From the NCBI RefSeq assembly GCF_041248615.1, contig NZ_CP158427.1: a DNA stretch of 64,000 nt, one strand, 5' to 3'. Position 1 is the first letter of the stretch. Each line of letters starts with the position of its first letter. This DNA comes from Escherichia coli (GTDB lineage: Bacteria; Pseudomonadota; Gammaproteobacteria; Enterobacterales; Enterobacteriaceae). This document shows positions 42,701-45,700 of the stretch, one piece after another. The position numbers were made by a program.

Positions 42701-45700
42701 CAAGGGAGATACCGTGATGAAAACTGAACTGACCCTGAATGCCCTGCAGTCCATGAACGCACAGGAATATGAAGATATCCGTGCTGCGGGAAGCGATATG
42801 CGCCGTAATCTCACTCACGAGGTGATGCGTGAAGTGGACGCACCGGCTAACTGGATGATGAATGGCGAGTATGGCAGTGAGTTCGGGGGCTTTTTCCCCG
42901 TCCAGGTTCGTTTCACGCCAGCCCACGAACGTTTCCACCTGGCATTATGTTCGCCGGGAGACGTCTCTCAGGTCTGGGTGCTGGTTCTGGTGAATGCCGG
43001 TGGTGAGCCGTTTGCGGTGGTTCAGGTGCAGCGGCGGTTTGCACCGGAAGCTGTCAGCCATTCACTGGCACTGGCGGCGTCACTGGATGCGCAGGGGTAC
43101 AGCGTTAACGACATCATTCATATCCTGATGGCGGAAGGAGGTCAGGCATGAGCGCACGTTCACAGGCACTGGTTCCTCTCAGCACAGAGCAACAGGCCGC
43201 ATGGCGGGCGGTGGCGGAGACCGAAAAACGCCGCCATCAGGGTAACACGCTGGCTGAATATCCGTATGCGGGTGCGTTTTTCCGCTGTCTGAACGGAAGC
43301 CGCAGGATATCGCTGTCTGACCTGCGATTTTTCATGCCGTCCCTGACCGCAGAAGAACTGCACGGCAACCGTCTTCAGTGGCTGTATGCCATCGATGTGC
43401 TGATTGAAACACAGGGCGAGGTCTGCCTCCTTCCCCTTCCCGGTGATGCAGCAGAGCGCTTGTTCCCGTCGGTGCGGTTTCGTGTCAGGGAACGCAGTCG
43501 CCATAAATCCGCGCTGGTCATGCAGAAGTACAGCCGCCAGCAGGCGAGGGAGGCAGAGCAGAAAGCCCGTGCGTACCAGGCGCTGGTCGCTCAGGCTGAA
43601 ATCGAACTGGCATTCCATTCGCCGGAAACAGTCGGAAGCTGGCATGCACGCTGGAGTGACCGGGTGGCAGAGCATGACCTGGAAACCCTGTTCTGGCAGT
43701 GGGGCGAGCGTTTTCCGTCACTGGCCGGAATGGAACGCTGGCAGTGGCAGGATATGCCGTTCTGGCAGGTTATTGCGGAAGCCAGTCTTGCAGCAAGAGA
43801 GGCCGGTCACGCTGTCCGTGAGATGGAGCGGTGGATGGTGCCGAACAAACTCCGGGAGGCAGCGTGATGCGGCAACAATCACACGGATTTCCCGTGAACG
43901 GTCTGAATGAGCGGATTATTTTCAGGGAAAGTGAGTGTGGTCAGCGTGCAGGTATATGGGCTATGATGTGCCCGGCGCTTGAGGCTTTCTGCCTCATGAC
44001 GTGAAGGTGGTTTGTTGCCGTGTTGTGTGGCAGAAAGAAGATAGCCCCGTAGTAAGTTAATTTTCATTAACCACCACGAGGCATCCCTATGTCTAGTCCA
44101 CATCAGGATAGCCTCTTACCGCGCTTTGCGCAAGGAGAAGAAGGCCATGAAACTACCACGAAGTTCCCTTGTCTGGTGTGTGTTGATCGTGTGTCTCACA
44201 CTGTTGATATTCACTTATCTGACACGAAAATCGCTGTGCGAGATTCGTTACAGAGACGGACACAGGGAGGTGGCGGCTTTCATGGCTTACGAATCCGGTA
44301 AGTAGCAACCTGGAGGCGGGCGCAGGCCCGCCTTTTCAGGACTGATGCTGGTCTGACTACTGAAGCGCCTTTATAAAGGGGCTGCTGGTTCGCCGGTAGC
44401 CCCTTTCTCCTTGCTGATGTTGTACGGGCATGAACAACCTGACTTCAGGAAGGTCGTTTCCCTTCAGGAACGGGGATGAACGCGCGCCTGCGGCGCCCGT
44501 TCTTTTCCCCCGCCTTCTCTGGTTATGGCCTGTCAGAAATCACATCACCTTCCCTGTGATTATTCTCTTTTTCTTCCTGCTCTGATTCTGACTACTGCAG
44601 TGTTGTCCTGTCTGCCGGGCGCACCTTCGGCTCCCGGCTGCCTGGCGGCATCCGGTCGTCAGGCCCGACTCCGACAGGCAGTTGCTGGCGCACCCGCCAG
44701 TCTCCGCCGAACCCGCTGGCGCGGTTTCGGGCTGTCGCTACGGTCCGATGCGTGAAAACCCCGGGCTTGCAGCGACCGTTCCGGTCGCGCCGCCTCTGTC
44801 GCGCCGTGGCCTGCGCTCCAGGCATCCCGGCAAAAAGACGCCGGGATGTAAGGCGCAACGCCGTTTCGCAAACCGCGCTTCACGTCGTTGCGGCGGGTCC
44901 CTGCCCGTTGTTGTGTCCGGTGCCATTCACCTGTTTAAGCCCCTGTCGCCGGGGGCTGATACAGCCACAACCTGCCGCACCTGTCCAGGGTAAATGAACA
45001 GCCCACAAAATTTTTTACCCAAAACCCGGTAAAAAATTTTGCGTTCTGCCCAGGACAGGTGCGTCAGGCCGTGGCAGTGATGCCCCATGCGGCGAAGGTT
45101 CTCAAACAGGTGATGGTGAATACCGGAGGGAACAAAGAGCAGGTCCCCGCAAAACGTCAAAACCGCGGCTCCCGAAACTCAACAGATGATGGGGGCTGAA
45201 AACCAGAGAGAGGAGAAAGCAGGATGAGTACCCGAAATATCCACGTTAACACCGCGTCGTACACGCTTCTTGTTGCCGGGAAGAAAAAAAACACCGGGGA
45301 AGAGTGGGACGTCCTGGAATTCAGCAGCCTGACTGAGCTGAAAAAATATCGCAAAAGCCACCCGGAAAAGATGGCCTTCAGTTATAGCTACGCGCTCAGT
45401 CAGGGTGTGGATAAGCAGTTCCGCCATATCAACATTGCGGAAGTCGATCACTTCAAACAGTTCCTGCGTCAGATTAAGCGTGCCGGCCTCGATATCCGGG
45501 CGATCTGCTGACCGGATGTGATGAATATCTCTCCTGATTGTTGCAATCTTGTTAATGGAGATCGGGGGGGGATGATATTAAGCGGAAAAATTTTTTATTA
45601 AATTTATTCTTTCATAAAGGAGTAGCTGTTATGCGATTAGCTTCCCGTTTTGGTCGGTATAATTCCATCCGCCGTGAACGTCCTTTAACGGATGATGAAT

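Follow-up and report, generated by a model that had tools for sequence, protein, structure and literature searches.

The parB (hok/sok) locus was discovered and dissected in plasmid R1. Its R1 sequence (GenBank X05813) constitutes a type I toxin-antitoxin module (hok/mok/sok) in which a small membrane toxin is restrained by a short antisense RNA. The hok mRNA of R1 has been described in isoforms of 441, 398 and 361 nt, and the antisense RNA, Sok, as a 64-nt molecule with an 11-nt tail; primers are available for transcribing Sok and the mature hok mRNA of R1 in vitro (PMC1635323). For the F plasmid, Couturier et al. noted that flmAB lies between Frpo1 and Frpo2, which are about 5 kb from each other, and proposed that the toxin guards this interval against recombinational deletion (PMC9849209). 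According to the literature, srnB, pndA and the chromosomal hokA-E genes have their regulatory logic in common with hok/sok.

The DNA analysed here, referred to as the window, is a stretch of 64,000 nucleotides from Escherichia coli (contig NZ_CP158427.1). It almost certainly carries an intact parB (hok/mok/sok) post-segregational killing locus, with the sequence found in plasmid R1, in the leading region of an F-like conjugative plasmid. When the 551 bp between positions 43900 and 44450 were compared by megablast with 72,556 plasmid records, at least 1,451 of these matched at ≥99% identity, and all 25 listed records were 100% identical. Plasmid R1 (NZ_KY749247) is itself 100% identical over this segment, including the 441-nt transcript, which occupies R1 positions 57449-57889. 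In an ungapped comparison with R1 there were no mismatches from 39600 to 44681, the first one (44682) falling outside the locus. R1 parB and the window agree in every part, from the promoter through the 441-nt mRNA with Sok, mok and hok to the terminator. Nothing in the sequence appears contrary to its being R1 parB. The feature is an ordinary one, already known and fully characterised: a sequence-identical copy of the paradigm type I toxin-antitoxin system. Over larger stretches, the best match is E. coli plasmid p14408_1 (NZ_LT599826), with 100% identity over 32000-56000 and 99.9% over 1-25000. This plasmid is typed IncFIA/FIB/FIC and has resistance and fimbrial genes elsewhere on it.

Translation gives a hok frame of 52 codons, from the ATG at 44147 to a TAG stop at 44303-44305. 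The mok frame begins upstream of it, at the ATG in 44089, spans the hok ribosome site and overlaps hok in a different phase before ending at a TAA (44299-44301). Hok matches Pfam HOK_GEF with an E value of 1.2e-21 and, over residues 1-52 of 52, the NCBIfam Hok subfamily model NF007279 (126.4 bits, cutoff 73). For Mok the matches are Pfam DUF5431 (E 2.6e-41) and, at 151.6 bits (cutoff 110), the NCBIfam equivalog NF010277, named "modulator of post-segregation killing protein". Both proteins thus pass curated family thresholds over their full length and hok and mok are no chance ORFs. The initial annotation had proposed a hok/mok type I module here, with hok at 44147..44305 and an overlapping mok at 44089..44301; the frames and the family matches agree with these coordinates exactly, and the family matches together with the identity to R1 bear out the module. 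The same annotation held that the module was not captured by the ORF track. This is plausible for hok, since 52 aa falls under the 60-aa cut-off, but less so for mok, whose 70-aa frame is on the mechanical ORF list.

As an independent check, the R1 positions named in PMC9841398 were compared with the window, setting +1 at 43974. Fifteen of 16 carry the stated base and codon. Positions with the stated base in the stated codon or element include G4, C5, T6, C74, G105, A106, T117, G118, G176 and A177 (K2E), as well as T204 (C11R), G311 (M46I), T315 (Y48N), A320 (E49E), G345 and C358. The exception is U326C, labelled G52G in PMC9841398, where the base agrees and the codon in the window is Gly51. 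A further inconsistency in that paper is the change given as "C345A" in one figure legend versus G345A in the main text. Both discrepancies stem from the publication and not from the window. Among the published positions, G105 and A106 belong to the GAGG Shine-Dalgarno (SD) motif of mok and fall at 44078 and 44079, while T117 and G118, in the mok start codon, correspond to 44090 and 44091 (PMC9841398). The hok-frame codon mutations K2E, C11R, M46I and Y48N of the same study map onto the frame assigned to hok. All features are collected in Table 1.

Table 1. Elements of the hok/mok/sok locus in the window, ordered by position, with the evidence used to place them.
Feature	Position	Strand	Evidence
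Candidate hok promoter, TGGTCA-18-TATGAT	43938..43967	+	consensus scan; putative role
hok (mok-hok) mRNA, primary 441-nt form	43974..44414	+	R1 primers, published lengths, R1 identity
tac, 5' end of hok mRNA, GGCGCUUGAG	43974..43983	+	predicted folds
Sok antisense RNA, 64 nt	44035..44098	-	R1 Sok primers, fold
ucb, anti-Shine-Dalgarno box, AGCCCCGU	44043..44050	+	predicted folds
mok Shine-Dalgarno, GAGG	44078..44081	+	7 nt upstream of mok ATG
Sok-target hairpin of refolded mRNA	44079..44114	+	local fold, Rfam consensus structure
mok, 70-codon leader frame	44089..44301	+	ORF list, Pfam, NCBIfam, R1 start-codon mapping
Candidate Sok promoter, TTGCGC-17-TATCCT	44105..44133	-	pattern search, position
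hok, 52-aa membrane toxin	44147..44305	+	translation, Pfam, NCBIfam, R1 mutation mapping
GC-rich 3' hairpin, GGCGGGC GCAG GCCCGCC	44315..44334	+	predicted folds
fbi, CUGAAGCGCC	44360..44369	+	predicted folds
Intrinsic terminator of primary transcript	44376..44414	+	predicted fold of 441-nt form

The ends of the hok mRNA were located with the R1 primers, which match exactly, hok F at 43974 and hok R at 44321-44334, delimiting 361 nt. With this 5' end, the published lengths put the 3' ends at 44334 (361 nt, the processed, translatable form), 44371 (398 nt, the full-length form) and about 44414 (441 nt, the primary form). The functional locus begins at the putative hok promoter (43938) and reaches as far as the terminator, at about 44414. 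The promoter candidate was found by a generic scan and ends 6 nt ahead of the hok mRNA 5' end; its consensus hexamers and its location suggest that it drives hok. The same scan for promoters and terminators missed the hok terminator, the Sok hairpin and the candidate Sok promoter, which were placed through the published primers, folding and a pattern search. In the predicted fold of the 441-nt form, the terminator appears as a 14-bp hairpin followed by a U-rich tail (44376-44407), with the 441-nt end falling just beyond. The processed 361-nt mRNA terminates in the GC-rich 3' hairpin, to which a "road-block" role against further 3' trimming has been ascribed (PMC1635323).

For the 398-nt form, the predicted minimum-energy fold reaches -175.9 kcal/mol (z = -8.25). 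In this fold the 5' end element, tac (a name taken from PMC9841398), pairs with fbi, positions 43974-43980 being matched with 44363-44369 and positions 43982-43983 with 44360-44361. In the closed folds, ucb pairs with the mok ribosome site (44044-44050 with 44076-44082; in the 398-nt minimum, 44044-44049 with 44077-44082). C74 (44047), within ucb, is described as the mok anti-SD, facing A106 (44079) (PMC9841398). The predicted 398-nt structure corresponds to the published closed, untranslatable form (PMC9841398), with the full-length mRNA locked shut by the tac/fbi pairing. Without constraints, the minimum for the 361-nt form (-147.4 kcal/mol) retains the ucb/SD pairing and a closed leader, unlike the published open form. 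When the Sok-target hairpin is enforced, the energy becomes -145.6 kcal/mol and tac (43974-43979) pairs with ucb (44043-44047). The published open form would thus be energetically within reach, since it costs only 1.8 kcal/mol over the 361-nt minimum; the calculations depict it as reachable, not as preferred. Folding therefore appears to reproduce the published switch between closed and open mRNA, with the open form obtained only when the target hairpin is enforced.

Folded locally, the Sok-target hairpin has an energy of -11.3 kcal/mol. Its loop, CUAGUCC (44093-44099), opens with the YUNR motif CUAG and reportedly forms a U-turn, a feature attributed to Franch et al. in 1999. The hairpin is present as well in the consensus structure of Rfam family RF01794.

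Sok could be placed on the minus strand because the R1 Sok primers match exactly, at 44035-44056 and 44078-44097, the T7 start G being 44098. The RNA runs from 44098 to 44035 and comprises an 11-nt single-stranded 5' tail, GACUAGACAUA, a long hairpin and a U-rich 3' end. Its fold has an energy of -26.5 kcal/mol, against -10.8 +/- 2.3 for shuffled sequences (z = -6.7). In the centroid fold the first 12 nt, which cover the tail, are unpaired and the remainder forms a 23-pair hairpin, in agreement with the experimentally established structure (PMC1635323). The tail is complementary to 44088-44098, that is, to the 5' side and the loop of the target hairpin. From its coordinates, Sok covers both the mok SD (44078-44081) and the mok AUG (44089-44091). 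Within mok, 6 nt ahead of the Sok 5' end, there is a likely Sok promoter, with a -35 hexamer TTGCGC at 44133-44128 and a -10 hexamer TATCCT at 44110-44105. This arrangement is unique in the window and was absent from all 100 shuffled sequences. It matches the consensus at 8 of 12 positions, which fell under the threshold of the generic scan and explains why it was overlooked there. Its position and consensus make it a candidate, and the identity to R1 suggests that it may function as the Sok promoter. Two points of the initial annotation need correction in this light. A Sok-like RNA had been anticipated upstream of the frames and left unplaced; the R1 primers did locate such an RNA, but it is antisense to the mok initiation region rather than simply upstream. 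The span of 44060..44310 given for the module proved too narrow, as it splits Sok in two.

An RNA-family search had also been suggested as a check on the locus. Rfam family RF01794 ("sok antitoxin") scores 88.9 bits, above its gathering score of 59, at plus-strand positions 43973 to 44149, which stretch between the start of the hok mRNA and the hok AUG. The search thus returned a match above threshold, but one that confirms the hok mRNA leader and not Sok: being on the sense strand, it cannot place the antisense RNA. As matched here, RF01794 describes the sense leader, with the target hairpin and the sense copy of the Sok hairpin. On the minus strand no Rfam family reached its gathering score. 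In a low-threshold Rfam scan the only minus-strand match over the locus was to a eukaryotic IRES model (E = 0.67), which was discarded as being at chance level.

Because the sequences are identical, the mechanism worked out for R1, including the roles of the mRNA isoforms (PMC1635323, PMC9841398), can be carried over to the window locus. The hok mRNA, stable and made from a weak promoter, would begin at 43974. In the full-length molecule tac would pair with fbi and ucb would bury the mok ribosome site, leaving the closed mRNA inert, neither translated nor bound by Sok. Slow trimming of the 3' end, up to the hairpin ending at 44334, would free the 5' end, which would then pair with ucb, exposing the mok ribosome site and forming the Sok-target hairpin. 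In plasmid-carrying cells, the abundant and unstable 64-nt Sok RNA would bind this hairpin through its 11-nt 5' tail and stop translation of mok, after which RNase III would cut the duplex; since hok translation depends on that of mok, hok would be blocked too. In a plasmid-free cell, Sok would be gone within a minute, the stored mRNA would mature and Mok and Hok would be made, the 52-aa Hok protein damaging the inner membrane and causing cell death. Toxicity of Hok and post-segregational killing have been reported for the identical R1 sequence (PMC9841398, PMC1635323), and inactivation of the Sok promoter renders a single chromosomal copy of that sequence lethal (PMC9841398). From the sequence identity, we infer that the locus is probably expressed in the window plasmid and would kill cells that lose it.

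We considered the possibility that the locus is a decayed or silent hok relic that no longer kills, as many chromosomal hok loci do not; those of E. coli gave no post-segregational killing (bioRxiv 10.1101/2025.08.07.668861). Such a fate is extremely improbable for the window locus. All of its elements (the promoters, tac, ucb, the ribosome sites and frames of mok and hok, the 3' hairpin, fbi and the terminator) are intact and the same as in functional R1, and the 551 bp are kept at ≥99% identity in the 1,451 or more plasmid records mentioned above. The relic reading was rejected on these grounds in favour of an intact R1-type parB.

The parB locus directly follows psiA (43148..43867; Pfam PsiA, 8.5e-39), the neighbour that the initial annotation had called typical. 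It is part of a block made of ssb, a parB-like gene, psiB, psiA and hok, with direct repeats of about 639 nt on either side. The two repeats, at 39170-39808 and 44566-45204, show a single difference over roughly 625 well-aligned columns, and each stops about 20 nt before an ATG, that of ssb at 39829 in one case and that of a 95-aa ORF at 45224 in the other. When the minus strand of the downstream repeat is folded as single-stranded DNA, it forms a hairpin spanning about 240 nt (z = -9.7). These repeats are the counterparts of Frpo1 and Frpo2, the single-strand promoters of F. The strand expected to enter the recipient first is the minus strand, read downwards from oriT near 47.4 kb; it is the template for hok-sense RNA and the non-template strand for Sok. 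The interval from psiA to the hok leader yielded no terminator. One might imagine that the orientation of the locus relative to transfer matters, such that in a new transconjugant hok-sense read-through RNA could be transcribed from single-stranded DNA ahead of any Sok, with the inert closed fold serving as a safety delay. We regard this idea as speculative and rather unlikely to be correct.

The practical value of the analysis lies in annotation, as base-level coordinates are now available for all the RNA elements, and the locus accounts for a stretch left partly empty by the 60-aa ORF track. In the RefSeq gene tables Hok is shortened by 11 residues to a 41-aa product, and mok and Sok are listed in none of the four tables. 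The Rfam "sok" model matches the sense-strand leader rather than the antisense RNA. Two further ORFs in this area, one of 74 aa on the minus strand (43879..44103) and one of 76 aa (44525..44755), are each annotated in some records as "hypothetical protein"; NCBIfam gave no match for either, and both were set aside as probably spurious.

The initial annotation had classified the locus as flm-type. This is right as to place, since flm of F occupies the same position, immediately after psiA in the leading region; flm (F) and parB (R1), which share this position, are the same locus in related plasmids. The allele, however, is that of R1 parB. It is very unlikely that the window carries the F allele (flmA, flmB, flmC) instead, even though overall DNA identity to F flm amounts to 95% and flmAB are functional homologues of hok/sok (PMC9849209). 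The 100% identity is to R1; in the F stretch compared, covering the leading region and tra, the 551-nt query found no exact match. The 441-nt transcript differs from that of F flm in 29 alignment columns, 19 of which are inside the 64-nt Sok segment, and residue 39 is His in Hok versus Tyr in FlmA. The antisense 5' tails also differ, GACUAGACAUA in the window being replaced by GUCUAAGCAUG in F; duplexes between tails and targets are predicted at about -15 kcal/mol for cognate and -3 to -4 kcal/mol for non-cognate pairs. The F reading was rejected because the Sok segment and residue 39 match R1 and not F.

With the window allele identified as R1 parB, its relation to the other members of the family can be outlined. 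F flm shares with it the general architecture, tac, fbi, the 3' hairpin, the terminator and both pairs of promoter hexamers, and FlmA is one residue different from Hok. The differences in the Sok segment include two short deletions in F; FlmB is predicted to be 59 nt long, with a recognition tail unlike that of Sok. Cross-recognition between Sok and FlmB is predicted to be weak, pointing to differing specificity. If this difference is real, a vector for curing a plasmid with this R1-type addiction module would need Sok, not FlmB. Searching the window by tblastn with four family members gave no second Hok-family locus of the srnB/pndA type; SrnB, PndA and HokB recover only the hok locus described here. 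srnB (F), pndA (R483/R16) and the chromosomal hokA-E genes encode toxins of the same fold family as Hok, with identities of only 32-54% over the aligned stretches. R1 parB, too, comes after psiB and psiA in the leading region, and only the carrier plasmid differs.

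The Hok toxin of the hok/mok/sok type I locus is present in existing annotation in a shortened form. The RefSeq gene tables of plasmids R1 and F, of p1658/97, and of p14408_1 (NZ_LT599826, the plasmid that best matches the window over larger stretches) all list a 41-aa product initiated at a GTG, whereas the start codon that has experimental support is the ATG at 44147, which yields a 52-aa protein. The overlapping mok frame is absent from the PLSDB gene tables of all four plasmids. These tables carry no RNA genes and thus could not have listed the antisense RNA, Sok.

Rfam does have a model named "sok" (RF01794), and this model finds a match at the locus. 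However, the match lies on the sense strand, not on the strand encoding Sok, and covers the hok mRNA leader as far as the hok AUG. Pipelines that annotate with RF01794 would therefore give "sok" both the wrong strand and the wrong extent. In addition, two "hypothetical protein" genes are annotated here in related records; neither product has an NCBIfam match, and both calls are probably spurious.

Features of the hok locus, its flanking repeats and other RNA elements (window positions)
Feature	Position	Strand	Remarks
Group II intron domains D1-D4	4125-4413	+	Rfam RF02001, 139.3 bits; RF01998, 62.6 bits
isrC	5609-5731	+	Rfam, full length, 145.2 bits
STnc490	17975-18098	+	Rfam, full length, 146.4 bits
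Direct repeat, upstream copy	39170-39808		~639 nt
ssb start codon	39829		ATG
WP_001299721.1	43879-44067	-	"hypothetical protein"; opposite hok leader/Sok region
RF01794 "sok" match	43973-44149	+	
Hok, 41 aa, as annotated	44180-44305	+	GTG at 44180; WP_001372321.1 (in F, WP_096937776.1)
WP_071587244.1	44525-44755	+	"hypothetical protein"; within Frpo-like repeat
Direct repeat, downstream copy	44566-45204		~639 nt
Start codon of 95-aa ORF	45224		ATG
traJ 5' UTR	48156-48265	+	Rfam, 117.8 bits; position given for the pair with FinP
FinP	48156-48265	-	Rfam, 91 bits; position given for the pair with the traJ 5' UTR

Rfam matches were also obtained elsewhere in the window. The traJ 5' UTR and its antisense RNA FinP, which together govern fertility inhibition in F-like plasmids, are both present, confirming how the tra operon is oriented. 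The matches to domains D1-D4 indicate that the plasmid's accessory region carries an inserted group II intron. The matches to two Salmonella sRNA families, isrC and STnc490, lie here on a plasmid, at a distance from the leading region. As judged from the annotation of p14408_1, positions 1-25000 contain, besides IS elements and an integrase, genes for macrolide resistance (mph(A) and mrx(A)) and for a fimbrial usher and chaperone. This segment aligns to p14408_1 in three separate pieces, implying some rearrangement or an insertion relative to that plasmid.

The hok segment is flanked by two direct repeats. Set 5,396 nt apart, the copies differ at a single position in ~625 well-aligned columns and enclose ssb, a parB-like gene, psiB, psiA and hok. 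An ATG lies ~20 nt past the end of each copy, that of ssb in one case and that of a 95-aa ORF in the other. As single-stranded DNA, the minus strand of the downstream copy is predicted to fold into a hairpin spanning ~240 nt (z = -9.7). The repeats fit the description of Frpo1 and Frpo2, the single-strand promoters of F (PMC9849209).
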